Source of the DNA: a virus | Taxonomy: Duplodnaviria > Caudoviricetes | Virus record (IMG/VR): IMGVR_UViG_3300020596_000031 | Span: 1-50,919 of that record | Strand: one strand, 5' to 3' | Length of the DNA stretch: 50,919 nucleotides | Shown: one piece after another, positions 4,738-27,937 of the stretch | How positions within the stretch are numbered: the stretch's first letter is position 1 | Layout: each line of letters begins with the position of its first letter | Program-made: the position numbers and the translations under genes | The notes under the pieces: model-generated | Seen by the model: the letters and a program-made list of their open reading frames with translations, nothing else | Told to the model about the DNA's origin: nothing | The model's database searches: none

Positions 4738-7700
4738 TGGCCGCTCCATTTTACAACCCCTTCGGCACCGCAAATTACTCGCGAGGCCGCGGGTCTCCGA
4801 TGGACGGCGATCCGCTTTCGCCGGGCGCTCGCCAGATCGTGAACCGCGTCAGGCAGGGCGAGGATGCTGCGATGCGGGCGGCGGCTAACTTCGACCCCAT
4901 CGACGACGAGATCAAAACGACGAACGAGCGTCGGACGAATCTCCGTCTTCAGCGCGAGGGGATGAAAAACACCCTGAGCAATTTTCTCGATACGGACGGA
5001 GCGGACATGTTCGAGCGCGATGAGTTGACGAACAAGCCGCACAAGAATCCTGACGGGTCGATGATCCCGAGGCTTGGCTTGGAGGTGGAATCACTGCGCA
5101 AGCAATCACAGCAGAAGACCGGTCTAATCGCGGGGGCGCTGTCGCCTACGAAGCAACGCGGAGATGACACGGAAGAGGCGAAGGTGGCGCAGCGGCGTTT
5201 GGCGGAGATCGAGCCCACGTACAAGCTGAAGCAGGAGAAGTACGACCGCATTCAGAAGGAGATGAAACGGATCGACGATGCCGACATTTCGCACGAGAAT
5301 CGACTGGCGGAGCTGGGTCGGATGCGCGAGGCGAGGTACACGGTTACGCCGGAGGATGTCCAGCAGGCCGTCACGCAGGTCAACACGTCGCGCGCGGCCA
5401 CCGGGCAGGCGCCAGTGTCGGCCAAGGATCTTTCGCAGGGCAAGGCCAAGACGGCGGCGCCGGGGGCGTATCCGGAAGGCGCATTCGCGACATTGTCGGA
5501 CCGCATGACCGGGCAACCCACCGGGCGCACGATCGCTCCAGAGGCGGTGCAAAAGAAGGTGCAGACCGAAGCGAAGGCGAGGAATCTAACTCCCGAGGCG
5601 GTTGAACTCGTGGAACTGACCAAGCTTCGCGACGAGGGTATTACGCATGTCGGGGGCCGCGCGATCGCAGACATGATCGCCGCAGGAGGAGGCGACGAGG
5701 CGGTGAACGCAATCCGCGGACTGGCGACCGTCGAGAATATCTCGAAGCGGATTTTGGACATCGACAACGCGCTCGCCAATGCGGGAGAGCGAGCGAGGCC
5801 TAGGCTTGAGAAAGAGCGCGCCGTGATGGAAAAGCTACGTGCGAGCAAGGCGGGCATCATCGAGTCGCTTCCCGATGCCGGGCGGGTGATTGCGGATTTC
5901 TTTGTTTCGTTCGGCAAGGGAGCCGGGTCTTTAATCAAGATGGCCGGCGATTTTTACGGGCTGGCGTCCGGCGACATGGACAATGCCGTGTCGCGCTACG
6001 GGAAAGACGTGGGGGATTTTTATCAGCCCTTCATGTCGGATCGCGGGCGGGCACTCGAAGCACAGCGGAGTCAGGCGGTCGACGCCGAGGACTCCGAACT
6101 CGGGAAGGCTTGGGCCTACGTGCGCGAGAGCGTGGCGAATCCCGAACTCCTGCCGGGACTGCTCGGCCAGAATATCGCCAACATGATTCCAGCGGGCGCG
6201 ACGGGTAATGTCGCTCGCAATGTGGCGGCTCGGGTGTTGCTGCGCAGAGCATCGACAGATGCGGCCAAAGCAGCGGCAGTAAAAACCGCAAGCCGCATTG
6301 GCGTTGGGGTCGCGGTCGGTGCGGGAGCGGTGATGCAAGGCACCGACGTCGCAGGCGATCAATACGCGGACCTCTTAGGCAGGCTGGATGCAATGCCGGA
6401 TGAACAGGCGGCCGGCATCCCCGAAATAGCCGAACTCCTGCAGCGCGGCGCCCCCATGCAGGAGGCGAAGCTCGCTCTTGCGCTAACGCAGGCTCGAACG
6501 ACCGGATTGATTTCATCCGCAATTTCTGTCGTCGCTCAAAGACTACCGGGCGGTAAAACGATCGAGCGTGCACTATCCGGCGCCGAGAATAAGGTTGGCG
6601 GTATCGTAGCAGGCGCGGCGAAAGGGTTTATTGGCGAGGCGGCATCGGAGGTGGTGGAGGAGGTTGGCGGGCAAGGTGCGAAAAACATCGGCGCGTTACC
6701 CGTCGATCCAGATCGAAAGTTTACCGAAGGATTCGGCGAAACGGGCGCGCAAGCTGCCTTGGTCGGCGGTGTGTTCGGCGGTCTCGCCGGAGCTGCGGAT
6801 CGAACGAGCACGGTGCCAGTCCCGCCCGCTCAGCCCCCAGCGCCCGGGGCACCCGGCGTTCCAGCCGCACCGGTTTCGCCTGCGACTCCTCCCGCGGCCG
6901 GGGCAACCCCGCCAGCAGGAACCACGCCCGCGGCCGAAGCCGAAGAGGCGGACGTCACGCTCGACAATCAGGCGCCGAAGTCTTTCGAGTTCACGAACGC
7001 GAAGGGCGAGACGACGATCGTCGAGGCCGTGCGCGAGAGTCAGGCGATCGCGAAGCTGCCGGCGGACTTCGGCCCGATCAAGGGCGTGAAGCGGGTTGAG
7101 CGTCCCGCCGAGAAGATGGAAGGCGAGAAGATCAATCGCGAGTGGAGTTCATTCGCGCCGGAGTCGAAGTCTCTCGGAATTCCACGCGCGGAGATGCCGC
7201 AAGTGAAGGCGGAACACCGCGGGGCCCTCACGCAATTTCTCAAGGGGCGGGACATCATTTCCGAAGATACGGAGGTCTTGCCGTCTGAGCTGAAGCCCAC
7301 GCAGGCTGAGTATTCGCCGGGCAAGGTTCAAAAGGCTCGCGAGTTCAAGGGGGGCGACCGCGCTATCTTGGTATCGTCGGACAATCATGTCGTCGACGGA
7401 CATCATCAATGGATGGCCAAGCTAACCGACGCGCCGAATGAGTACATGCGCGTCATCAAGTTCGACGCGCCGATTCGCGATGTTCTCGCGCAGATGACAG
7501 AATTCCCGAGCGTCGAAAACGCAGGGGGCGCCGCACCAAAACCAATTTCGGAGCAACCAGCCGCAGGCGGCGTCAGTGTTGCAGCCGATTCCGGGACCGT
7601 CGCAGGCAAACCGACGGTTCCAGCCATCACCACGCCGGGGGGCGCCCAAAGTCCGGAGGCCGTTGTTAGGGGTAGCGACGGGATTTCGGAGGGCGTTCCC

Positions 7701-10700
7701 CTGGCACCAATTTCGCCGGAGCCAAAGACCGATGTTGCTGACACGAATACGCCTTCCGCAGGAATAACGCCGACGGCTCCGGCGAATCCACTTTTGCCTC
7801 CGCCGGTCGCGGCGAGTGACAAGCTACGGGCACCAACTGCACCAACTCCCGCACCCGGGCCGGCGGCGGCGAAACCTCCTGCAATCGCGCGCGGCACGAA
7901 CAAGCCGCAGACGTTCGTCTCGACTGTCGCCAAGGCGGCAAACCTCAAGGCCAAGGACAAGGCCACGCGGTTCCTGACGGACTTCGCGCCGCGGTTGCAC
8001 AAGGCGAATCCTCAGGTGTTCGAGGCCATGGAGGTTCACATCCTCAACCAAGCGGAGTGGGACTCGAATCCACGCACCGGCGCCAACACGCCGAACTCTG
8101 CCGCCGCCTACGATCCCGAGACGAACACGATGTTCTTCAACTCGGACAAGTCGAAGGGCGACGACGTAGTCGATAACGTCGTACACGAAATGGGGCACTT
8201 CGCGGAGAAGTTCGCGCTTGGAGAAGAGTTCACGCAACGCGAGTGGGCGAAACTTCAGATCACGCAGCGCATCCAGGCGGACGAACAGTATAAAGGTCGG
8301 AAGCTGACGCCTGAAGAGGTCCGTGCATTCGGAGCGGGTATCGATAACAAGCGCGCCCGCTCTGAGTGGGCCACGATGCAGTTCGCCCGCGTCGTCAAAG
8401 GCGATACCGACGGAATGAGCACAGGGATGCGCGCCCGGCTTGAAAAGTTCCTGGAGCTTGCGCGCGAACTCGTGCGGAAGTGGATCGGCTCGAAATCACT
8501 CACGACCAAGGAACTCGACGCGAAGATTTTGAACGTGCTCGGGTATGCGGAGAAAGCCGACATCCACACGCTTGTCGGCAAGAACTCCGAGGGCCACGAA
8601 GTTTATCAGGACGAGCGCGGAGTGCGGCATGTCGCGCGCATTGCGGCGAATCCCGATTTGCTGATTTCAGAGCCGGTCGGGATGAGGCCTACGCGCGGCC
8701 CCAATGGCGGCATCGTGTACCAGGCCGATCCCCGCACGTCGCGGGAGCGCGAGAACACGGAGTTCGAGACGACGACCGAGAAAGGGGCGCGGACGCCGGC
8801 TCCGGTTACGACGCCTCGCGTTGCAGATACGACGCCTCGCGTTGCAGATACGACGCCAGCCGTCGCACCGAAGCCGGCCAAGGCCGTAGTCACGGCCGAG
8901 ATCAAGCCAGTGGTTACGCCAACGCCAGAGGAAGCGCCGGCAGTCGAGCCAAAGTCGCCCGAGAAGCCGGAGATTACGCCCGCGCCCGCGCCTGTGGCGG
9001 AAGCGCCGACGCCCATTGTGACGCCGACGACAGAGGGCGCGACGATCAGCGCCACACTGGCCGCAGACAAGGCCGTGGCCAAAATGGCGGATCGCAAGCA
9101 GCTAAAAGTGCAGAAGGATTTCCTCGTCAGTGCGCTGGCTGCCGCGGAGAAGGCCGCGCGCGATGAGGTGCCAATGACGCCGGAGGGACTGGTGAGACTG
9201 GAGGCCATCAACGCCGCGGAGAAGATCGTCAACGCCGGCCCAGTGACGACCGCTTCGACCGCCGAGCTCATGGGACTGGCGAAGGCCGCTGGCCTCAAAA
9301 AGTCCGAGCGAGCCAAGCCGCCCGGGGAGATCGCCGACACCCTGCGCTACCACGTCACTCGCGATCATGGCGAACACGTTACAATCGAGGTGCCGGGCGA
9401 TGGCACGTTCCGCATTCCCAATTCCAAAGGCGCGCTGGCCGCATTCCGCGCCCGCGTAGTCTCCCGGATGAACAAGGAGACAGCGGACCTTCCCTCGCCG
9501 TTCTCCGACGAGGTGAAGCCTTACGCTGCGGCGAATCCATCGTCCATCCCAGCAGTCAAGAAAAGCCCAACCAAGGACGATCTGACCGCCGCGGCCGCGA
9601 TTGCGCAGAGCCAAGACGAAACCCGTTTTATTCTTAACCGGGTTTACTCGGAAGACAGACTCTCGATCGGCACTGATGGCCAGCGTATGTTCATTGTCGC
9701 AGGCGGCGGCGGAGAAACTGCGGCGGACATAGCCAAGCTGAAGGTCAAAGATAAAAGAGCCAAAGACATAGGCAAGTTTCCAAATTGGCGCCAAGTTATT
9801 CCGAAGTGGGTCAGTGCATCGAGCGGTAAGGTTCGCGCCGATGGCAGCGCTGCGCCCAGCAAGCGCGCGATCGTGGACACCGGCGAGGCGGTAAAGGCGC
9901 TAAATCAGGTGCTGGCCATCATCGAAAAAGATGAGGCCGCAAGAAATGCCACGCGGCTATATCTGCTCGACGGCGGCAAGCTCGGTTTTTCGGCCGCGAG
10001 TCCAAAGATCGGTGACTACGCGAGTGAGGGCGTCACCGACGCCATGCTTGAAAGCATCGACGGCGGCGCCATCACGGGAGCGAATCCGATCTTTCTCCGC
10101 GATGCTTTTGTCGCTGCGCGCCTGGCCGGCCACGAACAGGTAACAGTGTACTTCGAGGATCCGTCGGTGAGTCGGAATGATCCATTCGTGATGATCGGGG
10201 GCAGTAATTTCGCGGCAGTCACCATGCCGACCAGCATGAAAGGCCCAGCTCGCACTGCGTTAACCCCGCCACCGGCGCCGGCAAAGTCTGGAACAGAGAA
10301 ACCAGTCGATGGCATGCTCGGCACGCCCGGCGTGAGCCAGACCGACACCCCTGCGTTTAAGGCGTGGTTCGGGGATAGCAAGGTGGTGGATGCGCAGGGG
10401 AAGCCGATGATGGTTTACCACGGGACCAACAATAGATTCAACGTGTTCATTGGGCGTCACCGCAATAGCGCGAATTTCGAAGAGGAAGTCGGCGCGACTT
10501 GGTTTACGCCAGATAAGGAAATGGCACGGGGTTACGCAGGCGGGCAGAAAGATCCGGTGGCGGTTTATGTAAGCATGACTAACCCTTATGTGCATGACGC
10601 GGAGGGAGGGTTCTGGATCTCTGCAAACTTCACCGCAATCAAACGCGCAAGGAAGGAAGGGCGCGATGGGGTTATCATCAAGAACGTAAGCGACATATCT

Positions 10701-13553
10701 GCCGGTCAGTCATCGCGTTTGATTGACACCTACATCACTTTCTCACCAACCCAAATCAAATCCGCCACCGGCAACAGAGGCACGTTCGACGGCACAAATC
10801 CTGACATTCTCGGCACGCCACCCGTTAAAGCCAGCCCGGCCCAAGAGGCCATTCTCGCGAAGGTGAACGGCACACTGGAAGACAAACGTTCCATCGGTCA
10901 GCGCATGAGCGACTACCTGGCGGACCTGAAGGATTACGTTTCGACCGAGCTGAAACAGAAGCTCCTCGACTCGTTCGCGTCTATCAAGCGGCTCGAGCGT
11001 GCGACCTTCGGGCAAGGCGCGAATCTGGACGCCAGTGTGAGCGCGTACAAAGCCGCTCGTCTGACAAAGAACCTCCCGAGCGTGATGGACTACCTGATGA
11101 ACCACGGTTCTCTCGAATATCGGAACGGTTCGATGTCGATGAAACCGGGCGCGAAGGGGCTCCTGCAAATCTTCAAGCCCCTGATGGATGCCGGCACGCT
11201 TCGACTTTGGGAAGGATACGCGACGGCGTTTCGCTCCGACCGGCTTTTGCAGGAAGGCAAGGAAACCAACTTCGGGCGGACACAGGATCCCGTCACCGGT
11301 CAATGGACATGGGACGCGGCAACCGCCCGCCGCGAGATCGACGCACTCCTCGCGCTCGGGAAGCAGTACCCTGAATTCGAGGTCGCGCGGCAGGGCTACG
11401 TCGAATTCCAGACATCGATCCTCGACGTGGCTGAGGGCGCCGGGCTCATCGGTGCGGACCAACGCGCAACGTGGGAGAAGTCTGACTACGTGCCGTTCTA
11501 CCGCATAGCTGAAAACTTGGAGGGCAAGGGCCCGGGCAAGCGCCGCGGCATCGCCGACCAGCGCAGCGGAATCAAGAAGCTCAAGGGCGGCGCCGCTCCG
11601 GTCGCCATCATGGAGAACATCGTCCGCAATATCGAGTCCCTCGTGGACGCCTCATTCAAGAACATCGCCATGCAGCGCGTGGCAGACCTCGCGGACGGCA
11701 ATAACGACATGCTCGTGAAGATCCCGTACAAGGCGGTTCCATTCAAGGCGTCGGTCACAGAAGTCTTGGACGAACTTGAGAAGGCTGGGATTGATACGAG
11801 CGGACTCTCGACAGATGAAGCCGCGGAATTCGTGCGGTTCTGGCGCATGAAGGCGCCGAAAGGGAAGGACGTGGTCTCCGTCATGGTTGACGGCAAGGCA
11901 ATCTACTACCGCGTGAAGGATGCGGCGCTCCTACGCTCGGTGCAGAGCATGGGTCCGCGCGTCCACTCTTGGTGGATGAGCGCATTGATGGCGCCGAAGA
12001 ACGCGCTGACGGCACTCGTGACGCTCGACCCCGAATTCATGGTGGCGAACACTATTCGCGACTCGTTCAGCGCGTGGGTCATCTCGGACACGCCGATCAA
12101 GCCCGGCTATGACACCGGGATCGGGTTCCTGAAGAGCCTGCGCAACGATCCATCTAAGTTGTCGGTGATGGCAGCAGGCGGGGGCGCCGGGCACTACAAT
12201 AATCTCCGCGAGGGTCGAGTGCGCGATTACATCCGGAGACTCACGCCGGCAGCGCGAAAGACGTTCCTCGAGTCCATCATCGACACGCCCAAGAAGCTGG
12301 GGCGGATCTACGCCGACATTGGACGGGCGACGGAAAACGCCAATCGCCTCGCCATTGCCGACAGCGTCAAGAAGCGTGGCGGCACCGATGCAGAGGCCGC
12401 ATTTCAGGCGCTCGACATCATGGATTTCGGTCTGCGCGGAGACAGCGCTCTCTTGGGCTTCTTTCTCGACACGGTGCCATTCCTGAACGCCCGGATGCAG
12501 GGGCTCTACAAGCTCGGCCGGGCTTCCGGCATAGGGCAAGGCGACGGAGCAACCAAGTATCTGCCGCACGCGCGGATCGCCACTTACGGCGCCATCATCA
12601 CTGGGGCAACCTTGGCCCTCCTCGGCTCCAACTGGGACGACGAGCGTTATTGGGAGCTGCCGGAGTGGGAGCGCGATATCTACTATCACTTCTGGCTGGG
12701 TGGACAACACATCCGGATCCCGAAGCCGTTCGAGGTCGGGCAAATCCTCTCCACGGTCCCGGAGCGCATGTTTGAATTCATGGGCAAGACCGGAGATGGG
12801 AAGCTCCTCGCCAAGCGCATGCTCACCATGCTCTCTGAGACGTTCGCGATGAACCCGCTCCCCCAGGTGATGAAGCCGGCAGCGGAGCGCGCGATGAACT
12901 TCAACACGTTCACCGGACTACCAATCATCAGCCGCGGCGACGAATTCAAACAGCCCGAACAGCAGTTCAACGTCTTCACGAGCGAGTCTCTCCGCGAGAT
13001 GGCGGAGGCGATGCCGGACTTTGCGCCGGAGTGGATGCGCTCGCCCAAGACCCTCGAGCACTTCGTCCGCGGCTACTTCGGTTCCCTCGGCATGTACGCC
13101 CTTACTGCCTCCGATGCCATCACCCGGGCGGCAACTGGCGCCCCGGACGATCCCGAGGTGAAGGCCGGCGACTGGTGGGTAATGAAGCGGTTTGCGCCGT
13201 CCAGCGACATGCGCGAAACGAAGTATGTCGCCCAGTTCTACGACATGCACCGCGAGATCACCGGCCTGACGCGCCAGATCAAAGAGCTTCAGAAGACGGC
13301 GCCCGAAGAGGCTCGCGCCCTGCAGGAGGCCAACGCGCAGTCCCTTCAGTTCGCGTCGCGCTCGGATTCGACCTACTCCGTCCTTCAGTCCCTCCGAAAA
13401 CAGCAGGAGCAGATTTACGCGAGCGACGACACCCCGGAGGGAAAACGGCGGCGTCTGGCAGCATTAGCGACCCGGCGGAACCAAGTTGCAAAGGGCGCTG
13501 TATCGGCTGCACCGCGTACTTCATCCATGCCGTTCAATCCGTTCGCCCGATAA
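4737..13553 (+). CDS. Giant polyvalent virion (DNA ejection) protein: ParB-like, zincin metallopeptidase, beta-clamp-like, ART-like and C-terminal LPD38 domains
   Basis: LKPTQ...VVDGHHQW (ParB-like, ~7280-7420); AYDP...VVHEMGH (HExxH at 8184); DETRFILNRV/TDGQR/GKFPNWRQVIP (clamp-like); FKAWFGDSKVVD...VYHGT...QIKSATGNRGTF (ART-PolyVal-like); YVPFYR, PFLNARMQG, IPKPFEVG (LPD38 region). Confidence 0.85.
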   Translation: MAAPFYNPFGTANYSRGRGSPMDGDPLSPGARQIVNRVRQGEDAAMRAAANFDPIDDEIKTTNERRTNLRLQREGMKNTLSNFLDTDGADMFERDELTNKPHKNPDGSMIPRLGLEVESLRKQSQQKTGLIAGALSPTKQRGDDTEEAKVAQRRLAEIEPTYKLKQEKYDRIQKEMKRIDDADISHENRLAELGRMREARYTVTPEDVQQAVTQVNTSRAATGQAPVSAKDLSQGKAKTAAPGAYPEGAFATLSDRMTGQPTGRTIAPEAVQKKVQTEAKARNLTPEAVELVELTKLRDEGITHVGGRAIADMIAAGGGDEAVNAIRGLATVENISKRILDIDNALANAGERARPRLEKERAVMEKLRASKAGIIESLPDAGRVIADFFVSFGKGAGSLIKMAGDFYGLASGDMDNAVSRYGKDVGDFYQPFMSDRGRALEAQRSQAVDAEDSELGKAWAYVRESVANPELLPGLLGQNIANMIPAGATGNVARNVAARVLLRRASTDAAKAAAVKTASRIGVGVAVGAGAVMQGTDVAGDQYADLLGRLDAMPDEQAAGIPEIAELLQRGAPMQEAKLALALTQARTTGLISSAISVVAQRLPGGKTIERALSGAENKVGGIVAGAAKGFIGEAASEVVEEVGGQGAKNIGALPVDPDRKFTEGFGETGAQAALVGGVFGGLAGAADRTSTVPVPPAQPPAPGAPGVPAAPVSPATPPAAGATPPAGTTPAAEAEEADVTLDNQAPKSFEFTNAKGETTIVEAVRESQAIAKLPADFGPIKGVKRVERPAEKMEGEKINREWSSFAPESKSLGIPRAEMPQVKAEHRGALTQFLKGRDIISEDTEVLPSELKPTQAEYSPGKVQKAREFKGGDRAILVSSDNHVVDGHHQWMAKLTDAPNEYMRVIKFDAPIRDVLAQMTEFPSVENAGGAAPKPISEQPAAGGVSVAADSGTVAGKPTVPAITTPGGAQSPEAVVRGSDGISEGVPLAPISPEPKTDVADTNTPSAGITPTAPANPLLPPPVAASDKLRAPTAPTPAPGPAAAKPPAIARGTNKPQTFVSTVAKAANLKAKDKATRFLTDFAPRLHKANPQVFEAMEVHILNQAEWDSNPRTGANTPNSAAAYDPETNTMFFNSDKSKGDDVVDNVVHEMGHFAEKFALGEEFTQREWAKLQITQRIQADEQYKGRKLTPEEVRAFGAGIDNKRARSEWATMQFARVVKGDTDGMSTGMRARLEKFLELARELVRKWIGSKSLTTKELDAKILNVLGYAEKADIHTLVGKNSEGHEVYQDERGVRHVARIAANPDLLISEPVGMRPTRGPNGGIVYQADPRTSRERENTEFETTTEKGARTPAPVTTPRVADTTPRVADTTPAVAPKPAKAVVTAEIKPVVTPTPEEAPAVEPKSPEKPEITPAPAPVAEAPTPIVTPTTEGATISATLAADKAVAKMADRKQLKVQKDFLVSALAAAEKAARDEVPMTPEGLVRLEAINAAEKIVNAGPVTTASTAELMGLAKAAGLKKSERAKPPGEIADTLRYHVTRDHGEHVTIEVPGDGTFRIPNSKGALAAFRARVVSRMNKETADLPSPFSDEVKPYAAANPSSIPAVKKSPTKDDLTAAAAIAQSQDETRFILNRVYSEDRLSIGTDGQRMFIVAGGGGETAADIAKLKVKDKRAKDIGKFPNWRQVIPKWVSASSGKVRADGSAAPSKRAIVDTGEAVKALNQVLAIIEKDEAARNATRLYLLDGGKLGFSAASPKIGDYASEGVTDAMLESIDGGAITGANPIFLRDAFVAARLAGHEQVTVYFEDPSVSRNDPFVMIGGSNFAAVTMPTSMKGPARTALTPPPAPAKSGTEKPVDGMLGTPGVSQTDTPAFKAWFGDSKVVDAQGKPMMVYHGTNNRFNVFIGRHRNSANFEEEVGATWFTPDKEMARGYAGGQKDPVAVYVSMTNPYVHDAEGGFWISANFTAIKRARKEGRDGVIIKNVSDISAGQSSRLIDTYITFSPTQIKSATGNRGTFDGTNPDILGTPPVKASPAQEAILAKVNGTLEDKRSIGQRMSDYLADLKDYVSTELKQKLLDSFASIKRLERATFGQGANLDASVSAYKAARLTKNLPSVMDYLMNHGSLEYRNGSMSMKPGAKGLLQIFKPLMDAGTLRLWEGYATAFRSDRLLQEGKETNFGRTQDPVTGQWTWDAATARREIDALLALGKQYPEFEVARQGYVEFQTSILDVAEGAGLIGADQRATWEKSDYVPFYRIAENLEGKGPGKRRGIADQRSGIKKLKGGAAPVAIMENIVRNIESLVDASFKNIAMQRVADLADGNNDMLVKIPYKAVPFKASVTEVLDELEKAGIDTSGLSTDEAAEFVRFWRMKAPKGKDVVSVMVDGKAIYYRVKDAALLRSVQSMGPRVHSWWMSALMAPKNALTALVTLDPEFMVANTIRDSFSAWVISDTPIKPGYDTGIGFLKSLRNDPSKLSVMAAGGGAGHYNNLREGRVRDYIRRLTPAARKTFLESIIDTPKKLGRIYADIGRATENANRLAIADSVKKRGGTDAEAAFQALDIMDFGLRGDSALLGFFLDTVPFLNARMQGLYKLGRASGIGQGDGATKYLPHARIATYGAIITGATLALLGSNWDDERYWELPEWERDIYYHFWLGGQHIRIPKPFEVGQILSTVPERMFEFMGKTGDGKLLAKRMLTMLSETFAMNPLPQVMKPAAERAMNFNTFTGLPIISRGDEFKQPEQQFNVFTSESLREMAEAMPDFAPEWMRSPKTLEHFVRGYFGSLGMYALTASDAITRAATGAPDDPEVKAGDWWVMKRFAPSSDMRETKYVAQFYDMHREITGLTRQIKELQKTAPEEARALQEANAQSLQFASRSDSTYSVLQSLRKQQEQIYASDDTPEGKRRRLAALATRRNQVAKGAVSAAPRTSSMPFNPFAR
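8807..8857 (+). repeat. 21-bp in-frame tandem repeat (2.4 copies; TTPRVAD)
   Basis: TACGACGCCTCGCGTTGCAGA x2 followed by TACGACGCC. Confidence 0.9.
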
Positions 13554-17822: not shown

Positions 17823-18287
17823 ATGCCACAAGCAAAAATCAAGCTACCTGATATAGCCGCAATCGGATCAGCACTACAGGTTCTGCGGACGAACGCGGCG
17901 GGCAACGCATTGGAGTTCGCTGCGCCCGCTGGTGGCGCGGCACCAGGGTACCTCGCTTCGTCCAACGCCAGCGGGAATACGACGATCTCCGTTGCTGCCT
18001 CTGGCCAAACTCACCTTGAAGTAACGACCGTCTCCGGCGCGGGGGCAACGACCCGAATCATGATCCTCGGCACCGCGGCGATCCCCGCAAACGCAGCGAT
18101 CATAGTTCACCGCGTGGAGCTCCCAACCACGGCAGACATTACGATCGAGTGGAGGAATGCAACGGCTGGTGGCACGCGCGAGACCTACCTTACCACCGAT
18201 ACCAGCGGAAACGACGCAGTCGCAGAATTCTATTTCAACGGGACCGCGTGGAAATTCCTCAAGTTCACCTATCCAGCCAACGCATGA
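17823..18287 (+). CDS. Fibre-associated protein
   Basis: QVLRTNAAGNALEFA fibre motif; C-terminal AEFYFNGTAWKF. Confidence 0.6.
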   Translation: MPQAKIKLPDIAAIGSALQVLRTNAAGNALEFAAPAGGAAPGYLASSNASGNTTISVAASGQTHLEVTTVSGAGATTRIMILGTAAIPANAAIIVHRVELPTTADITIEWRNATAGGTRETYLTTDTSGNDAVAEFYFNGTAWKFLKFTYPANA

Positions 18288-21175
18288 ACACAATTCGCCT
18301 ATCACTCGTTCTCTTGATCGCGCTTCTGGCGATGCGGGACGGCAACGCGCAACAGCCCTCCAACGTGCAGAAGGCGCCCACAGGCGCACTCACTGCCGGC
18401 TTCAATTCGGCACGAACGCATGTGTTCCTGAGTGGAGCCGACGTCACGTTTAGCGCAGGGACCACGCTGACGGTCAACGGGACTTTCGGCGGTACGCCAA
18501 CGGGTGGCACACTCAACCTAACCAATGTGACGGTGAGCGGGCTTGCGGGCGACATCACCGCGGCAACGGTGAACGGCGTTGCATTATCCGGCACCAGCAC
18601 GCCGACGCTCGCGGTCACCGGAACCAGCTCAATCAGCGGGGCACATACAGGCACCAGCTCCGGGACGAACACCGGCGATCAGACGAGCGTCTCAGGCAAT
18701 GCAGGCACGGCAACAGCACTCCAGACCGCGCGGAATATCAACGGCGAGGCCTTTGACGGCACGGCCAACATTACGGTCCCAGCAGCCGCGGGCACACTCA
18801 CGGGCGCTACGCTCGCTTCCGGGGTGACGGCGTCCTCGCTCACAAGCGCAGCAGGCGGCGCATTCGGCACCGCGGCATTCACCGCGGCAACCGCGCACCA
18901 GCCGGTTGATGCGGACCTGACATCCATCGCCGCGCTCGCCACGACATCGTTCGGCCGAGGGCTGCTCGCCGAGACCAGCGCGAGCACCACGCGCAGCACG
19001 CTCGGGCTCGTAATCGGCACCAACGTACAGGCATTTGACGCCGATCTCACAACCTACGCCGGCATCACTCCAAGCGCCAACATCCAATCGCTGCTGGGCG
19101 CCGCCAACTACGCTGCTGCCCGCGCGCTACTCGACCTCGAAGCAGGCACAGACTTTTTGGCGTATCCGACCGGCACGCCGAACGGCAGTAAATTCCTGCG
19201 CGATGATAACTCATGGCAAACAATCACAGGCGGCGGCGACGCGCTTGTCGCAAATCCGCTCTCACAATTCGCATCGACCACTTCCGCGCAACTTGCCGGG
19301 GTCGTAAGCAACGAAACAGGTAGCGGGCTCCTCGTGTTTGGGACCTCGCCTACGCTTGAGACACCCGCACTCGGCACGCCTACCGCGCTTGTACTGACAA
19401 ACGCCACCGGCCTGCCTATAGCAACCGGAGTCAGCGGACTAGGGACAGGCATTGCAACCGCTCTAGCCACCCCGACAAGCGCCAACCTTGCGGCGGCTTT
19501 GACCAACGAAACCGGAACGAGCCTCGCTGTATTCTCCGAAGCCCCGACCATTAACGCGGCGAATCTCACCGGCACGACAACGGCAACGACAGTCGCCGTG
19601 ACCATGCTTGTCCCCAGCGCTGTAACATGGGGCAGCACCGTAATGCCCAGCGCCAACGGCGGCGCCGGCACGATCAACGGAATCCTGATGGCGAACGGCA
19701 GCGGAACCACCAGCCTAGCAGTGAGCGGCACCAACTACGAGCCAGCGCGGACGGCAATTTCGCAAGCAGATGCAGAGGCAGGAGTCGCTACTACCGTGCA
19801 GGGCTTTACGGCGCAGCGCGTGGCGCAGGCCATCGCGGCACTCGGCGCTGGCGGCGACAGCATCCCAGCGGGTGCAGCGATTAGTTGGCCGACAACCGGT
19901 ATCGGATCTCCGCCGACGGGATATTTCGCCGCCGGCGAATACGGCACGCCGGCGCAAGTTGAAACTGGGTTGTGGTCCAAAGTCGTGCGCTCTGCCGGCA
20001 CCATCGGCGCATTTACGTTCAGCCCCGCGGCGGGCGAGGTCGCAGACGGCGCAACGATCTCGTTCGTCACAGGCGGCGGGGTTGCGGGCACGACGTTCAG
20101 GCACACGTTCGGTGACGGCACACAAGCCGCGCCGACATTCACGACCGGCACGGCAGGGGCCAGCGCGGTGATTTCCGGCGCGGGCACGTACAAGGTTACC
20201 GAGATCAAAGCTGGGTACATCTCGGCTACGGGAAGCGCGGCATACACGATGGTCGCGGCACCAACCGTCAGCACGCGCACGATTCCCGCCCTAGGCACCA
20301 CGCTCGTCGTTGTCCACAATGAAACCGTCACCCACGGCGCAGGCGGTAGCGGCGGGCACACACTCTCAGCGTCAGGCGGCGCAACGACTCCGACGTATAG
20401 CAGCGGCGCGGGCACGGCAACACTGACCTATACGCTCTCCCGCACGGTGCTCGTCGGAGAAACCGTAACGCACTCCTACACGCAGCCGGGCAACGGAGTG
20501 GAGGACGCGGCGGGTAACGACCTAGCTACGTTCGCAACCCAAAGCGTGACCAATAGCAGCACGGCGGACGGAATCACCTACATCATCAAAGAGTCGTTTG
20601 AGGGCGCAAACGCGTCGTCGAACCAGCCCGCAGTAGTCGGGCTTGATATGACCGGATGGACTGCCACCAGTGCTAACGTGCTCTCACAGTCTACGCCTGC
20701 GACCGCAGGGAACTATTCCTTGCGGCTCAATAACGCTAGTATGTACCGGGATAGTGTTGCGATGACCGGCGCCACCCTTTATACGTATTTTAAGCTCACG
20801 CGACTAGGCAATTTTGCCACCTCTTCTGTGGGTGTGGTCAACAGCGGGAAGGATGGTAACATCTTAGCCGTATCAGCAACCACGATGGCTGCTCGCAATG
20901 GAGTGACTAACGGCGCGGCAGGCGCTGTGCTTACTCTCGATCAGGTGTACCACGTCTGGATCGACTATACGCCGGGCAGCGGAAACAACGGGATAACGCG
21001 GGTTTACATGTCCACGGACGGCATCAAGCCGGGAGTCGTTTACTCTGAAGTTACTGATGGCAATGCTACTGCGACGACGAGCCTGCGGTTCAACATACAG
21101 AACTCTAACAACACGGTGAGGCTCGATGACTTTCGGGTGGCCCATGTTGTCCTAGGCAGCAGCAGCACACCATAA
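18284..21175 (+). CDS. Tail fibre-like protein with N-terminal signal peptide and C-terminal beta-sandwich (lectin-like) domain
   Basis: ATGA overlap at 18284; MNTIRLSLVLLIALLAMRDGNA-QQ; fibre motifs GNAGTATALQTARNING..FDGTANIT, DADLTSIAAL, ETGSGLLVFGTSPTL. Confidence 0.75.
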   Translation: MNTIRLSLVLLIALLAMRDGNAQQPSNVQKAPTGALTAGFNSARTHVFLSGADVTFSAGTTLTVNGTFGGTPTGGTLNLTNVTVSGLAGDITAATVNGVALSGTSTPTLAVTGTSSISGAHTGTSSGTNTGDQTSVSGNAGTATALQTARNINGEAFDGTANITVPAAAGTLTGATLASGVTASSLTSAAGGAFGTAAFTAATAHQPVDADLTSIAALATTSFGRGLLAETSASTTRSTLGLVIGTNVQAFDADLTTYAGITPSANIQSLLGAANYAAARALLDLEAGTDFLAYPTGTPNGSKFLRDDNSWQTITGGGDALVANPLSQFASTTSAQLAGVVSNETGSGLLVFGTSPTLETPALGTPTALVLTNATGLPIATGVSGLGTGIATALATPTSANLAAALTNETGTSLAVFSEAPTINAANLTGTTTATTVAVTMLVPSAVTWGSTVMPSANGGAGTINGILMANGSGTTSLAVSGTNYEPARTAISQADAEAGVATTVQGFTAQRVAQAIAALGAGGDSIPAGAAISWPTTGIGSPPTGYFAAGEYGTPAQVETGLWSKVVRSAGTIGAFTFSPAAGEVADGATISFVTGGGVAGTTFRHTFGDGTQAAPTFTTGTAGASAVISGAGTYKVTEIKAGYISATGSAAYTMVAAPTVSTRTIPALGTTLVVVHNETVTHGAGGSGGHTLSASGGATTPTYSSGAGTATLTYTLSRTVLVGETVTHSYTQPGNGVEDAAGNDLATFATQSVTNSSTADGITYIIKESFEGANASSNQPAVVGLDMTGWTATSANVLSQSTPATAGNYSLRLNNASMYRDSVAMTGATLYTYFKLTRLGNFATSSVGVVNSGKDGNILAVSATTMAARNGVTNGAAGAVLTLDQVYHVWIDYTPGSGNNGITRVYMSTDGIKPGVVYSEVTDGNATATTSLRFNIQNSNNTVRLDDFRVAHVVLGSSSTP

Positions 21176-21176
21176 C

Positions 21177-23642
21177 ATGATGCGCACTCTACTTGCTTTG
21201 TTTCTGCTTGCTCAGGTTGCGCGTCTTGCGGCGCAGGACTACACGTTCTCAAACGTAGCCAGTACGAGCACCGATCGACGCACCACCGCGGGCCAGTGGG
21301 GCGCTCGCTTCCATAATACGTCAGGGGAGATCATCACAATTACCCACGTAGGTCGATGGATTTTCTCCGGAAACTCCGGGACGCACTTAATCACGGTTTA
21401 CGGCGATTACGGCGAATTTCTTGGCAGCGCAACCGTGGATTGCAGCGGGACGCCGGGGACGTGGGCGTGGGCTGCGTTGTCGGTCCCGGCGCAGGTTTCG
21501 GTTGGCTATCGGGCTTGGATTTTCAGCACAGAGGGCAACGGCGATCAGTGGTCTAATCCATTTGGCGGCACCGGCTATTCCGCAACCGATTCAGATATTG
21601 GTTACTTTCAAACCGCCAGGAATATTGGGACACCTGAAGTTCCGATCGGTCAAGAAGACGGCGGACTGTTCATGTCTTATGGCCCGGTTAATTTTCGCTA
21701 TTCTAGCCCCGTTCAAACGTGGACCAAGGCAGGCACGGTTTACACGACAGACGGAACGCAATATCAGGTAAGCTCTGCGATTAACGACGCCACTATCGGC
21801 GACACGATTATGCTTCCCGCCGGAACAGTGACGTGGGGCGTTGGCGGCGCAGGTATCTCGATTAACAAGGCGGTTACCGTCCAAGGGGCAGGCATCGACC
21901 AAACAATCATCAATCAAAGCGCCACTGCCTCGGCAGGCTGGGGCAGCACGTTCATATCATTGGCAAGCGGGGCGACGATTCGCAAGCTGACGATTACTGG
22001 GGCGGATATAGAAGGTGGCGTTTTCTCCACTGGCGCGGCTACGGATTGGAGGATCAGCGAGGTTAAGTACGTGCAGTACCCTAACCGGAACCCTTACTTT
22101 GTTTACGCTCAATACTCTCCCCGCGGCTTGATTGACCAATGCGACATCACGGGTGGCAAGGGTAACTCCGAGTTGGTGTTCGCACGCGGGCCTTCCGACG
22201 CTTGGAACGTGGCGACTCCGGTCGGCACGGAAAACAATATCTTTATTGAGGACAGTATTTTCCGTGGAGCAGGCTATGTGTGCGACGCCAATAGCAACGG
22301 TCGAATCGTAGTGCGAAACTGCACGATTACCGACGGCATCAAGGTTGATTCACACGGCGTCTGGAGTAACGGCGGTCCACAGCGGGGCGCTCGAAATCTC
22401 GAAGTGTATCGAAATACTTGGACCTTAACGACGGGCGCTTGGCCCGCCATCGAGATTCGCGGCGGGACTGGGATGGTTTGGGGCAACAGCAGCGCGGCTA
22501 CCAACGCTTCAAATATGGCGTGGTTTTTCCTCACGGAATATGGGCTTTTTAACAACAACGGAGCGTTTCACCCGAACTTTCAAACGGCTTTTGATTACCC
22601 AATCCGCGATCAGATTGGCCGCGGCCAATACTCCACTGCGGACGACTGGACTACCGCCGCCAGCGAGCCGATATATGTTTGGGACAATCTGAAAGGTGGA
22701 CTACAATGGCCGCTTTCGTACAAGACCATTGCAGCGGGCGCAATCACTCGCTTCCGGGACCAAACCGGCAACCCAACCGCGACGTTTGTATGGGAGGATG
22801 TCATCCAAGCCGACCGGGATTACTTTCGAGACGTTGCGGGTTTCAACGGCTCAACCGGCGTCGGCACCGGCACAGCTGCGGCAATGGCCGCGATCACACC
22901 CACGAAAACCGGCGTGGGGTTTTGGGTCACCGACGAGGGTACGTGGGATCTGAGTAACGGAGCCACAACGGACGGGCGACTGTACCGCTGGAACGACAGC
23001 GCGTGGGTACTGCATTACACTCCGTACGCGTACCCGCATCCGATGCGCAGCGGAGATGCGCCTAGTGTCATTACCCCGACCTTCACCCCGAGCGCGCCGA
23101 CGCACAGCACGCCGCAGAGCGTGAGCATCACGGGCGAGACCGCCTCCGCGACCTACTACTACACCCTGGACGGCACGACCCCGACCGCAGCGAGCACGCT
23201 CTACACTGATCCTGTCTCCATCGGCTACGGCACGACCACGATGAAGTCTATTGGCGTCAAAGCGGCACACGAAAATAGCGCGGTGCGATCCGTGACCTAT
23301 GTTATCACCGCCGCCCCCGGCGCTCCGTCGTTCTCGCTCCATCCAACAACTCAGTTGGCTACAGTCGGCGACAACGTGACGCTCACCGTCGCAGCCAGCG
23401 GAGATCCAACGTTCCAGTGGCGCAAGGGTGGCGTGAATATCCCAGACGCTACGTCCGCCTCTCTCGCGCTGACCAACGTGCAGCTCGCCGATGCGGGCAG
23501 TTATGACAGCGTTGCGACGAACGCCGGCGGTTCGGCGACCAGCAACGCGGGAGTGCTTACGGTCAACCATGGCGGCAATGGCGGCGATGGCGGTACAATC
23601 AACGTCACCACGATCAACGTCGGGACGCTCTCACTCCCATGA
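21177..23642 (+). CDS. Signal-peptide protein with parallel beta-helix (pectin-lyase-like), Fn3-associated/chitobiase-C and immunoglobulin domains
   Basis: MMRTLLALFLLAQVARLAA-QD; AINDATIGDTIMLPAGT...KAVTVQGAG beta-helix start; YYTLDGTTPT..S; FQWRKGG..IPDATSASLALTNVQLADAGSY Ig motif. Confidence 0.8.
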   Translation: MMRTLLALFLLAQVARLAAQDYTFSNVASTSTDRRTTAGQWGARFHNTSGEIITITHVGRWIFSGNSGTHLITVYGDYGEFLGSATVDCSGTPGTWAWAALSVPAQVSVGYRAWIFSTEGNGDQWSNPFGGTGYSATDSDIGYFQTARNIGTPEVPIGQEDGGLFMSYGPVNFRYSSPVQTWTKAGTVYTTDGTQYQVSSAINDATIGDTIMLPAGTVTWGVGGAGISINKAVTVQGAGIDQTIINQSATASAGWGSTFISLASGATIRKLTITGADIEGGVFSTGAATDWRISEVKYVQYPNRNPYFVYAQYSPRGLIDQCDITGGKGNSELVFARGPSDAWNVATPVGTENNIFIEDSIFRGAGYVCDANSNGRIVVRNCTITDGIKVDSHGVWSNGGPQRGARNLEVYRNTWTLTTGAWPAIEIRGGTGMVWGNSSAATNASNMAWFFLTEYGLFNNNGAFHPNFQTAFDYPIRDQIGRGQYSTADDWTTAASEPIYVWDNLKGGLQWPLSYKTIAAGAITRFRDQTGNPTATFVWEDVIQADRDYFRDVAGFNGSTGVGTGTAAAMAAITPTKTGVGFWVTDEGTWDLSNGATTDGRLYRWNDSAWVLHYTPYAYPHPMRSGDAPSVITPTFTPSAPTHSTPQSVSITGETASATYYYTLDGTTPTAASTLYTDPVSIGYGTTTMKSIGVKAAHENSAVRSVTYVITAAPGAPSFSLHPTTQLATVGDNVTLTVAASGDPTFQWRKGGVNIPDATSASLALTNVQLADAGSYDSVATNAGGSATSNAGVLTVNHGGNGGDGGTINVTTINVGTLSLP

Positions 23643-23866
23643 ACTTCTCGCTCGACCTCAACACGCTGCTCTCAAGCGGCATCCTTGCACTCACGATCTG
23701 GACTCTGAAGACCGTGGTGGCCCTCGACCGCAAGCAGGCGGCGGCGGAGGAAAAGCACACGGCTATCGTGGCACGCACGGGCGACCACCATGACCGCATA
23801 AGCCGGGTAGAGCACAAGGTGGGGCACCTCGAAGTCGGCGTGGCCAAGCTGCAATCACGGGAGTAA
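23639..23866 (+). CDS. Small membrane protein (holin/antiholin-like)
   Basis: One N-terminal TM segment plus coiled-coil tail, at the head of the lysis cassette. Confidence 0.55.
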   Translation: MNFSLDLNTLLSSGILALTIWTLKTVVALDRKQAAAEEKHTAIVARTGDHHDRISRVEHKVGHLEVGVAKLQSRE

Positions 23867-23870
23867 TTAT

Positions 23871-24422
23871 ATGGGCAAGCCCGACATCAATCTCCTCTCG
23901 TTCGCGCACCAGCGCCCGCTCGGCACGCATCACGTCGGCGACCTGACGCCCAGCTCGTTCCACTCGGACACGCTGAAGATCAGCGATTGCGCGGACGGGA
24001 TGATCCTGGCCGGGCACGTCATCGGCGGAAAAGAAGACGCCAACGATTGCAATAATCACTGCTCAAACGTCGTCATGCAGGCGGACTGTTGGGAAATCCG
24101 GGGCAAGTACGGGTTCACGATCAAGGGCGGGAGTTCGAACATCACACTTATTGGCCTAGTGCGCGGCCACGGCTCTGTGGTGGACGTGGACCTTGGCAAC
24201 ATCAGCGACCAGAGCGACGACATCACCGGGCCTGTATCGCTGCAACTGGCGCACGAGCTGGGCTCGCAAGAGCCGATCACCGTCCGCGTCCTCGGCGCAA
24301 CGAACCCGATCATCCTCAACCCCGAGCAGGCCTATAAAGTCATCTTTGCGATCCCCGGCCCGTTTCGCTCCTTTTTTCTGAAAGCGTACAAGTTCCTCAA
24401 AAAGCTAGGACTCCCAATATGA
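23871..24422 (+). CDS. Putative parallel beta-helix enzyme in the endolysin position
   Basis: DTLKIS...GGKEDANDC...GFTIKGGSSNITL...DVDLGN resembles lyase/GH beta-helix turns; basic amphipathic C-terminus; flanked by holin-like genes. Confidence 0.5.
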   Translation: MGKPDINLLSFAHQRPLGTHHVGDLTPSSFHSDTLKISDCADGMILAGHVIGGKEDANDCNNHCSNVVMQADCWEIRGKYGFTIKGGSSNITLIGLVRGHGSVVDVDLGNISDQSDDITGPVSLQLAHELGSQEPITVRVLGATNPIILNPEQAYKVIFAIPGPFRSFFLKAYKFLKKLGLPI

Positions 24423-24634
24423 AAATCACCGACATCCTTAAATCGAAAACTATTTGGGGCGTACTTATCGCCGCCATTCCCACCCTGCTCGGCTTCTTCG
24501 GGCTTCAGGTTGGAGACATCGGCGTGTTCACCGACCTTGCCAATAACGCCGTGGATTCCCTCGTCACCCTCGCCGGCAGCGCGCTGGCCGTCTATGGCCG
24601 CATCGTGGCCGTCAAAGGGCTCATCACCAAGTGA
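24419..24634 (+). CDS. Holin
   Basis: 71 aa, two TM segments, KSKTIWG N-terminal and YGRIVA C-terminal motifs typical of small holins. Confidence 0.7.
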   Translation: MKITDILKSKTIWGVLIAAIPTLLGFFGLQVGDIGVFTDLANNAVDSLVTLAGSALAVYGRIVAVKGLITK

Positions 24635-24900
24635 GCGCGATCACGGCTATATTTGCCGCGCTCGCCGCCTACCTTCAGATCAAACTCATCACCGCCCGCT
24701 ATGATCTACAACGCCGAATCGAGAGCGATGTCCGCAACGCCGAGGAACGCATTGACCAGCTTCGCGCTCGTGGCGGGCCTGCTGACCAGCTTGCTGCTGA
24801 CCGGCTGCGTGAGCAGATCATCCGGGCCAACGGCGTCGTTGCAAATCTACCAGCCGCCAGTCCTTCGCCTCACGGCGGGGACGGTGGTAGCAACTCGTGA
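24631..24900 (+). CDS. Inner-membrane spanin (Rz-like)
   Basis: N-terminal hydrophobic anchor plus coiled coil; overlaps a lipoprotein gene in another frame. Confidence 0.6.
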   Translation: MSAITAIFAALAAYLQIKLITARYDLQRRIESDVRNAEERIDQLRARGGPADQLAADRLREQIIRANGVVANLPAASPSPHGGDGGSNS

Positions 24901-25024
24901 CGGCGTTTACACAGTGCCGCTTGACGAAACGTGGCACAGCAATCAGCGGTTCGTGAAGGTCGAGAACGAGGCGGTGAACCTCGCGGCGGCGCTCGCGCAA
25001 GAACGGGCAAGGGCCGGCAGGTAG
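24728..25024 (+). CDS. Outer-membrane spanin (Rz1-like lipoprotein)
   Basis: ATG 24728; lipobox LLLTG-C; overlapped Rz/Rz1 architecture. Confidence 0.65.
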   Translation: MSATPRNALTSFALVAGLLTSLLLTGCVSRSSGPTASLQIYQPPVLRLTAGTVVATRDGVYTVPLDETWHSNQRFVKVENEAVNLAAALAQERARAGR

Positions 25025-26455: not shown

Positions 26456-27937
26456 ATGGCCTTTGATATTTCCGAAGTTCTTCATTACGACGCTTTAATC
26501 GCCAGCGACCCGCAGTTGATGCGTCAACTGTGGAGCGAACTGGTTTCCGCGGACTCCCGTGACTCTAACCCGATGAAGGATTTCATCGGCACCGAAGAGT
26601 CGGGCAAGCCTATCTGTGAAAAGACCGAGCTCGGTGCGGGCGGGTCTCAGAAAGTCACCTTCACGTCCATGGCGCCTATCGGCGGCAGGGGGGTAATTGG
26701 TGGCGCAGAGCTCAAGAGCAAGACGGCGAAGCCCGTGCATGGCACCTGGGGCGTCACCGTGGACATGCGCCGGTTTGCCATCTCGGAGGATCAACTCGTC
26801 GAACTGCTTCGGTTCAACCAAGGCAAGTCGCGCGAGTCGGTCCTGTACGAGCTATGCAAGCAGTGGTGGGGCATGATGGAGGCGGACGACATCCAGATCA
26901 CGTTCCGCGACAAGGCGCTGTTCGCGACGGACCAGCCGAATGTATACCGCATCGGTGGCGGCGCGACATCGAACGACATCAACCTCAACAACACGTTCGA
27001 TACCGGCACCATTGAGGAGTCGACCGAGCAGCTCGTTGGATTGGGCGCGATGCCGCTTGGCCTGTCGATGGACGAAGCTGGCAGCGAAGTGCCGGAGTTC
27101 GTCACGTTTGGCCCGCGTCGCTTCCTTCGATCCCTTGAGGACGAACAGAAGTTCCGCGAGGCCGTGCTGCACGCTCAGGCGCGAGGCGGAGAGAATTTCC
27201 ACTGGACGGGTAAGTACCCGCGCTGGAAGGAAAGTCTTATTCACCGGCACGCGATCAAGTTCGACTCCGGCAATAAGCGCCAGGGCTCGCCGCTTCTCCC
27301 GATCGCGTTCTTGGGTGCGGCACTCGCCGACGCGACGCCTACGACTGTCACGGGCGGAGGCGCACACAACACCGCAGGGGCGCTGACGGACACGATTCTG
27401 TACGACTACTTCTCGGCGTTCCGGGGTAACTACTGGAAGACCTTTTCCGCGGAGGTCGCGCCGACGGACAACAACACGTACTACGCGCTGATCTATAACG
27501 TGTCCGGTGCAGACCGCGGCAAGTACGAGATCGTGTCGTATGTGACTGCTGGCAACAACGGCAACCGGCTCACGGTCACTCGTGCGGTCAACGCTGACGG
27601 CCAGCTTACGGCCCTCACTGCCGCGTCGAAGTACACGAACGCTCACCCGAGCGGCTCGTGGATCATTCCGTGCAATAAGTGGGGCGTGCCGCTCGGTTAC
27701 GCCTTGGTCATGGGTGCCGAGGCTCTCGCGCTCGCCAAGGGCGCAATTGATGCAGACCCAATCGAATGGCAGGACGACTTCGTCTCGAAGACCTCCGGCA
27801 AGGCGCATATCAACTCGAGCGGCATCCAAGGGATCCGCGGGTATGCTCCGAAAGAGGATTCCATCGGGCGCTACCCGAACTTCCTCGTGGTCGAGGGTGC
27901 GCTCGATTACGGGCTACCCTTGGTTGCTCTCAACTAA
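26456..27937 (+). CDS. Major capsid protein (N4-gp56/DUF4043-like)
   Basis: FIG...PI..KTEL..GG..KVTF...GVIGG.EL...VTVD..RFAI N-terminal pattern; follows scaffold; followed by a terminator. Confidence 0.8.
   Translation: MAFDISEVLHYDALIASDPQLMRQLWSELVSADSRDSNPMKDFIGTEESGKPICEKTELGAGGSQKVTFTSMAPIGGRGVIGGAELKSKTAKPVHGTWGVTVDMRRFAISEDQLVELLRFNQGKSRESVLYELCKQWWGMMEADDIQITFRDKALFATDQPNVYRIGGGATSNDINLNNTFDTGTIEESTEQLVGLGAMPLGLSMDEAGSEVPEFVTFGPRRFLRSLEDEQKFREAVLHAQARGGENFHWTGKYPRWKESLIHRHAIKFDSGNKRQGSPLLPIAFLGAALADATPTTVTGGGAHNTAGALTDTILYDYFSAFRGNYWKTFSAEVAPTDNNTYYALIYNVSGADRGKYEIVSYVTAGNNGNRLTVTRAVNADGQLTALTAASKYTNAHPSGSWIIPCNKWGVPLGYALVMGAEALALAKGAIDADPIEWQDDFVSKTSGKAHINSSGIQGIRGYAPKEDSIGRYPNFLVVEGALDYGLPLVALN

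Follow-up and report, generated by a model that had tools for sequence, protein, structure and literature searches.

A predicted beta-helix protein as a candidate lysis enzyme in the endolysin slot of a phage with a likely Opitutus-type host

Which protein does the endolysin's job in a phage whose lysis cassette carries no recognisable endolysin? This question is raised by the virus record IMGVR_UViG_3300020596_000031 (Duplodnaviria; Caudoviricetes), of which a stretch of 50,919 nucleotides, hereafter the window, was analysed as a whole. In its lysis cassette a holin-like gene (gene A) is followed by an open reading frame (ORF) for a protein of 183 amino acids (aa), a second holin gene (holin B) and an overlapped spanin-like pair. 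All five genes lie head to tail on the plus strand, after an 821-aa tail or decoration gene and ahead of the genes that precede the major capsid gene. A first-pass annotation of the DNA had described this gene order, including the holins and an overlapped Rz/Rz1 pair with a lipobox, and all five ORFs are present as described. It had also read the 183-aa protein as a beta-helix protein of a new endolysin class. We propose that this protein may be a small calcium-dependent beta-helix lyase that would cut an acidic envelope glycan at lysis and do the endolysin's job, a reading to which we assign a probability of roughly 0.45.

The window is a linear virus record, 76% complete, with terminase, portal, capsid and integrase genes. 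Its end continues in a contig of an Opitutus metagenome-assembled genome (MAG), and the last 300 bases of this contig match the start of another virus record (99.3%). This second record runs into the first base of the window, resulting in a circle of approximately 62.4 kb. Because the pieces stem from different assemblies (96-100% identity), small strain differences are possible. Outside the window, the remaining 11.5 kb code for DnaB, a DnaA-type domain, RadC and a methyltransferase, together with small ORFs and the terminal part of a replication initiator. No Pfam or PHROG lysin family was found among the scanned proteins of the closed genome (43 proteins, eight more and 129 ORFs, of which 124 belong to this phage). 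When both records were searched in six frames for GH24, Amidase_2, M15_4 and SleB, the controls were detected and no match was obtained; a six-frame search of the window gave no SLT match. In addition, 21 queries representing lysins and slot occupants had 0 matches among 927 six-frame segments, in which the positive control was found. The absence of a known lysin from the window, as reported in the first-pass annotation, thus extends to the missing 11.5 kb, and an endolysin hidden in the unsequenced part of the genome is rejected. The beta-helix gene is the sole candidate for the endolysin's job that was found in this phage.

The position of the gene can be compared with that of known endolysin genes through holin B. 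Relatives of holin B were found in 29 viral loci, three of which carry the beta-helix gene. From the 26 loci without it, 22 were examined and four were left out as likely near-duplicates. A Pfam peptidoglycan hydrolase lies directly upstream of the holin B relative in seven of these 22 loci, representing five lineages (M15 three times, SleB and Amidase_2), and in two further loci the hydrolase is three genes away (GH24 at −3, M15 at +3). The beta-helix gene of the window occupies that same position directly upstream of holin B, which bears out the earlier assignment to the endolysin slot. None of the five cassette products had a Pfam match, and PHROGs gave weak matches to unknown families for two of the five and nothing else. 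Therefore, the spanin and first holin labels derive from topology and position, whereas that of holin B is additionally based on its relatives. The product of gene A has one weak N-terminal hydrophobic segment (best 19-residue hydropathy 1.64) followed by a soluble tail; it had no Pfam or PHROG match, nor a homologue outside this phage among the genes called from the collected loci. The spanin-like pair has the layout of overlapped two-component spanins, with an N-terminal membrane segment in the first product and a lipobox in the overlapped second, as in PMC6139136. The likely start of the o-spanin-like gene is the ATG at 24728, and a longer ORF is possible from a TTG at 24653. A homologue of this gene lies two genes from the beta-helix gene in another locus (L073, E 4e-10).

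Association with lysis genes is also seen across the family. A called gene was present in 120 of 126 loci, which form 45 lineages at 70% identity, 32 of them with full flanks. A holin-like or lipoprotein gene is found within two genes in 13 of the 32 full-flank lineages (18 of 45 overall) versus 5 of 91 background genes (Fisher p = 1e-5), as judged by a crude classifier with misses (L046 and L033) and probable over-calls (L037 and L133). Two of these neighbours are Pfam Pam3-gp28 holins. When mapped on the tree, the lysis-neighbour label needs 12 changes, at least six of which are forced, and therefore the lysis-type neighbourhood is not one inherited arrangement.

Moreover, six of the best 150 representatives run from the amphipathic tail of the beta-helix protein directly into a hydrophobic stretch and a lipobox. 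Five of the six end in hydrophobic segments, as judged by eye, which is the layout of unimolecular spanins (u-spanins; PMC6139136). The second halves of the fusions come from two lipoprotein families, unrelated to each other, whose members are also found as free neighbouring genes (L128 and L026 at +1, L082 and L065 at −2; E down to 1e-58). The fusion label needs five changes on the tree, at least three of them forced by strong branches. Many free members end in GLPI, and in three fusions a Cys and a hydrophobic stretch come right after GLPI; the tail thus also serves as the beginning of a lipoprotein signal. Most fusions are single sequences. Assembly errors are nevertheless an unlikely explanation, as three fusions occur on two to three contigs or members, and the fusions are spread over distinct parts of the tree, with lipoproteins of two families as partners. 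A scan with one lipoprotein family returned the known locus and two weak unrelated matches, nothing more. Stop read-through of the 183-aa ORF in this phage was rejected, as the frame past the stop is not hydrophobic.

The 183-aa protein belongs to a family of 299 clusters at 90% and 417 at 50% identity, in which no name goes beyond 'hypothetical'. Two queries matched no cultured phage among 50,697 GenBank phage records. At E <= 1, Pfam returned nothing for the protein itself (P0001) or for 17 close homologues, and Pfam, PHROG and PDB sequence searches assign it to no family; a profile of 131 sequences had no match in the PDB at E <= 10. None of the known endolysin families (GH24, SLT, Amidase_2, M15, SleB and other Pfam lysins) matched it at profile level, and the 28 homologues scanned, fusions included, have no peptidoglycan-binding domain. 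Matches of the family to WRAP-T were rejected as repeat artefacts, and the best score in the ESM Atlas (0.82) was under the lead threshold of 0.9. The occupant of the endolysin slot is an undescribed family, in a cassette that is itself of a known kind.

Over 260 proteins, a set that includes close relatives, residues D33, K36, E55, D56, D59, N61, T83, K85, S112, D113, Q114 and R139 are 90-100% conserved, and each of the putative active-site residues from D33 to K85 is 92-100% conserved. Among the 241 members that are 165-215 aa long, the C-terminal 22 residues carry a median charge of +4, with a median hydrophobic moment of 0.53. The sequence motifs and the basic amphipathic tail quoted in the earlier description are present in the translation. 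A scripted test found a hydrophobic N-terminus in 1 of the 260 proteins, and two homologues (P0123 and P0255) have export-like N-terminal signals when read by eye.

The AlphaFold2 model of the protein (predicted local distance difference test score 93.3) consists of alternating strands that recur about every 23 residues, and a single helix at the C-terminus. Its strands start at residue 7 of 183, so that the model has no attachment domain before the beta-helix. A structural search placed it among the right-handed beta-helices, with matches to the tailspike TSP3 (Z 11.8), the alginate lyase 6kfn (Z 11.7) and the PL3 lyase 1ee6 (Z 10.8), with root-mean-square deviations (rmsd) of 3.0-4.0 over 146-148 aligned residues; GH28 enzymes are also among the matches. 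Foldseek found one uncharacterised phage protein in BFVD. The earlier beta-helix reading agrees with this predicted fold, to which a lyase-like conserved site can be added. The conserved pattern is D33..E55-D56-x-x-D59 plus K36 and K85. Judging from the DSSP string and strand list of the model, these residues probably lie on equivalent strands of successive rungs, and the near-invariant Asp, Glu and Lys would be arranged like the calcium site of PL3 and PL9 lyases. The fold by itself does not show catalysis.

In both lyase families a lysine serves as the base, with a calcium triad D63/E83/D84 in PL3 and a calcium site Asp209/Asp233/Asp237 in the PL9 enzyme Pel9A (PMC10992409). The PL3 enzyme Pel-15 (1ee6) is likewise a small beta-helix of about 200 aa (rmsd 3.7, 146 aligned), the spacing of its triad fits D33/E55/D56, and its site also has the basic residues Lys107, Lys129 and Arg132 (PMC10992409). 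In contrast to PL3, no homologue scanned matches PF03211 and the context is that of phage lysis. One distant homologue has a weak Pectate_lyase_4 match (E 0.03), and no PL3 protein for alignment was found in three host genomes. The PL9 enzymes (Pel9A, 1ru4; BT4170, 5olq) share the right-handed parallel beta-helix (Z 9.2, rmsd 3.6 and 163 aligned for the model versus 5olq). The pattern D..DDxxD of Pel9A corresponds to D..EDxxD here, with a one-rung spacing of 24 versus 22-23 residues, and a lysine is the likely base in both (PMC10992409). However, the lysines are elsewhere, K36 being one rung earlier and K85 two residues past Pel9A K273 in the register set here, and the 183-aa protein is half as long, lacks a signal peptide and has an amphipathic tail. 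PL9 membership by sequence was rejected (hhalign probability 0.2% versus one PL9 protein, no PF22842 match).

The nearest cellular kin of the family are found in the class of the host, where 15 of 401 genomes matched, 12 of them via a PF13229 family of mostly about 360 aa. Both families have the D33/K36/D59/K85-G-G register in common (hhalign 95.9%, E 5e-9; alignment A3). The cellular proteins are host genes that differ in their length, in their signal-like N-termini and in lacking E55-D56 and the GNxSDQ motif. They model as a typical carbohydrate-enzyme beta-helix, with matches to AlgE4 (Z 31.7, rmsd 2.6, 303 aligned) and the lyase RbmB (Z 29.9). A more closely related cellular protein, which starts with a signal-like sequence, is encoded no more than about 10 kb from GH28 and pectate-lyase-like genes. 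The conserved, uncharacterised PF13229 proteins of 12 of the 401 host-class genomes (L197-L208) could represent a new lyase family in their own right.

A scan of species genomes gave four loci, namely three in Opitutaceae MAGs and one on a 4-kb contig in an Aquaspirillum MAG. One of the Opitutaceae loci is a Mu-like prophage within a 582-kb contig with host genes on both flanks. At least three contigs of the phage studied here are binned in an Opitutus MAG, an association that does not imply integration. In the order of the host of the Mu-like prophage, 4 of 401 genomes matched at E <= 1e-9, and the Aquaspirillum MAG itself was the single match among 400 genomes of its class. The host is likely an Opitutus-type bacterium. 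The earlier suggestion was a host of the Planctomycetes-Verrucomicrobia-Chlamydiae group, in which peptidoglycan has been hard to detect; the Opitutaceae link supports the host, but peptidoglycan is present, though low. Opitutaceae have sacculi and lysozyme-sensitive peptidoglycan, with diaminopimelic acid (DAP) about ten-fold below that of E. coli (PMC5303756).

The catalysis, location, substrate and lysis role that we infer for the protein could be combined as follows. The protein would be made late and without a signal peptide, and its basic amphipathic tail would park it on the inner face of the inner membrane until the holin lesion admits it to the periplasm. There, D33, E55, D56 and D59 would hold Ca2+ against a carboxylate of the substrate, and K36 or K85 would take the neighbouring proton in a beta-elimination. 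The cut would clear away the layer that prevents fusion of the two membranes by the spanins. Such a beta-elimination needs a uronic-acid-like carboxylate, and therefore a wall-associated polymer other than peptidoglycan is a more likely target than the backbone of N-acetylglucosamine (GlcNAc) and N-acetylmuramic acid (MurNAc). In its widest form, which we put forward more tentatively, the proposal describes a novel type of lysis enzyme. A minimal beta-helix lyase would replace the endolysin in phages of Opitutae because the load-bearing layer between the membranes of these hosts would include an acidic glycan besides thin peptidoglycan. Several lineages would then make the enzyme and a unimolecular spanin as a polyprotein, to be split by signal peptidase II into a membrane-tethered lyase and an outer-membrane lipoprotein.

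Several results weigh against this proposal. The earlier expectation that homologues consistently sit between holin and spanin genes failed, since 19 of the 32 full-flank lineages have no holin-like or lipoprotein neighbour by the classifier; a rule of 'always between holin and spanin' is rejected. In none of the six near-complete virus records with the gene, nor in the integrated prophage, is it part of the lysis cassette; mostly it closes an early or middle operon or is found among tail genes. That carriers lack other lysins is true for the closed genome of this phage, but two of the six near-complete carriers encode a known lysin (a GH24 lysozyme in G014 and an SLT protein in G037). Moreover, G028 and G030 have a diverged SLT-like protein, G030 having been tested for five lysin families only. 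Proteins that we take to be papain-like or S26-like, going by motifs in the absence of a Pfam match, lie in or near the cassettes of G009, G037, G038 and the prophage. The cassette of L217, on a contig of only 6 kb, is 72-78% identical to that of L216 with exactly the beta-helix gene missing. G047, a complete genome with a 56% identical capsid protein, has neither the beta-helix gene nor a Pfam lysin among the 51 proteins scanned, and therefore the absence of a known lysin does not single out the beta-helix gene. Structurally, the best fold matches are the non-enzymes C-CAP (top match; Z 12.9, rmsd 4.5, 127 aligned), TBCC and RP2, and Foldseek found nothing in the PDB at E <= 0.001. The topology of the fusions would leave the beta-helix domain on the cytoplasmic side of the signal peptide. 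We know of no acidic wall polymer in Opitutaceae. Finally, their peptidoglycan is lysozyme-sensitive (PMC5303756). As a whole, the idea of a new endolysin class is partly supported, by the slot, the predicted fold and the lack of a known lysin here. Known lysins are thus often lacking in these phages, whose slot is filled by varied occupants, and the beta-helix is one mobile member of this set.

Other occupants of such positions were observed as well. A membrane-anchored protein, presumably with an S26 signal-peptidase-like motif although it has no Pfam match, is encoded directly before a u-spanin-like lipoprotein in two phages (L143:204-719 and L161:6895-7362; mutual E 1.6e-36) and could be a non-canonical lysis enzyme. 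A family of about 150 aa lies in or near three lysis cassettes (L146:14854-15294(-), L158:15433-15903(-) and L235:3318-3773; mutual E 1e-8 to 1e-23), and we take its Cys-His-Glu/Asp pattern to be papain- or transglutaminase-like. In the Mu-like Opitutaceae prophage, a presumably permuted papain-like protein (L053:12113-12550; phrog_1128, E 7e-31) is encoded between a lipoprotein gene and a holin-like gene. In G047, a gene whose 126-aa product begins with a signal-like sequence separates a holin-like gene from a lipoprotein gene (L166:3760-4137). Small SLT-type proteins with signal-like N-termini are found among the early or middle genes in 4 of 43 carrier records (L137-L140).

The main rival, which we consider unlikely but well worth weighing, is a depolymerase that acts in release: the lyase would cut capsule or matrix outside the outer membrane after lysis, and lysis itself would be left to the holin and spanins together with host autolysins or a thin wall. 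The mobility of the gene, its frequent location outside the cassette and its co-occurrence with GH24, SLT and other slot occupants all favour such a role, as do G047 and the low DAP content of the wall (PMC5303756). Phage beta-helix lyases, moreover, usually act on capsule or exopolysaccharide (PMC6116005). However, the repeated fusions to spanin-like lipoproteins and the conserved membrane-type tail fit the inner membrane or periplasm better, and this phage offers no other enzyme candidate. Like the lyase replacing the endolysin, it would be a lysis-stage enzyme for a non-peptidoglycan glycan, by analogy with LysB of mycobacteriophages (PMC6116005). A protein that cuts peptidoglycan proper is improbable. 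The exact endolysin slot would suit it, and GH28 enzymes among the fold matches would suit an acid triad D33/E55/D56, which we take to be GH28-like, working on the MurNAc-GlcNAc backbone. The host family has lysozyme-sensitive sacculi to be cut (PMC5303756). Against this stand the two near-invariant lysines, which suit lyase chemistry, the lack of peptidoglycan-binding domains among the homologues and the presence of GH24 beside the gene in G014.

It is equally doubtful that the protein is a non-catalytic helper, or one working from the cytoplasmic side, i.e. a beta-helix bound to the membrane, where it would regulate the holin or bind a lipid-linked precursor of the wall. The non-enzymes C-CAP, TBCC and RP2 as best fold matches, the near-absence of hydrophobic N-termini and the cytoplasmic fusion topology would all be accounted for. 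Yet more than ten polar residues are at least 90% conserved in rung-to-rung register, four residues are common to a cellular family that resembles carbohydrate-active enzymes, and two homologues have export-like N-termini. Least probable is an entry depolymerase attached to the virion, which would lie near lysis genes only because these sit among tail genes. The gene is indeed among tail genes in two Mu-like prophages and L008, and the tailspike depolymerases CBA120 TSP3 (5w6f) and Fri1 gp49 (6c72) share the fold (Z 11.6-11.8). In contrast to the 183-aa protein, whose model opens directly with the beta-helix, these are virion-bound and have about 580-620 residues in the matched chains. Moreover, carriers of the gene include Mu-like, SU10-like and large low-GC phages, some early or middle operons contain it too, and the family is fused to lipoproteins, with no fusion to tail fibres among the 13 longer homologues read.

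Compared with known holin-endolysin-spanin cassettes (P2-type overlapped spanins and T1 gp11-type u-spanins; PMC6139136), the order of holin, enzyme, holin and overlapped i- and o-spanin is the same, and holin B relatives come after known endolysins. As in the u-spanins, the lipoproteins that accompany the protein in relatives combine a lipobox at the N-terminus with hydrophobic segments at the C-terminus. The differences are that the enzyme slot holds a predicted beta-helix without a known lysin domain and that six homologues form one reading frame with a lipoprotein. Mycobacteriophage LysB (PMC6116005) is likewise a lysis-cassette enzyme aimed at a non-peptidoglycan component of the envelope, but it is an esterase beside a known endolysin, whereas here a beta-helix was found and no known endolysin.

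A survey of tailless phages predicted for Verrucomicrobia reported no known wall-degrading enzyme and suggested an unknown lysin (PMC9502842). No beta-helix endolysin was found in titles and abstract openings from a library that lacks most subscription journals, and no publication was found that joins Verrucomicrobia, phage, endolysin and spanin. The family offers a small, concrete lysin candidate in which specific residues can be mutated. Should its target be a wall-associated acidic glycan, it would represent a new lysin chemistry and a means to probe how the Opitutae envelope is held together. Should it act on capsule, it would be a release depolymerase tied to spanins, and still an undescribed family of several hundred clusters.

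Table 1. Coordinates of the lysis cassette and flanking features in the window.
Feature	Position	Strand	Remarks
Holin-like or antiholin-like gene A	23639..23866	+	75 aa; labelled by topology and position
Predicted right-handed beta-helix protein, likely glycan lyase, endolysin slot	23871..24422	+	183 aa
Putative active-site codons D33, K36, E55, D56, D59, N61, T83, K85	23967..24125	+	From conservation
Basic amphipathic C-terminal helix, likely membrane anchor	24357..24404	+	Residues 163-178; from model and tail charge
Holin B	24419..24634	+	71 aa, two hydrophobic segments; ATGA overlap with the 183-aa ORF; relatives behind known endolysins
i-spanin-like (Rz-like) gene	24631..24900	+	89 aa, N-terminal hydrophobic segment; labelled by topology and position
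o-spanin-like (Rz1-like) lipoprotein	24728..25024	+	98 aa, +1-frame overlap; lipobox LTGC, Cys27 at nt 24806
Tail or decoration protein	21177..23642	+	821 aa, Ig and CHB_HEX_C domains; context
Major capsid protein	26456..27937	+	phrog_334, E 9e-9; context

Further features of the genome were observed outside the lysis cassette. Tail-fibre-like and decoration genes of these phages often start with sequences resembling cleavable signal peptides (window 18284-21175 and 21177-23642; L007:35-4046; L054:5696-8705). Such starts are unusual for virion proteins, and these proteins may be exported before assembly. A polyvalent protein of 2938 aa with ART-PolyVal and LPD38 domains is encoded at 4737-13553 in the window and is likely an injected anti-host protein. 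The part of the genome outside the window carries, at L192:4332-8782, the RadC gene, a methyltransferase fragment and a 1024-aa Eco57I-like methylase; a RadC gene is present in G047 too.

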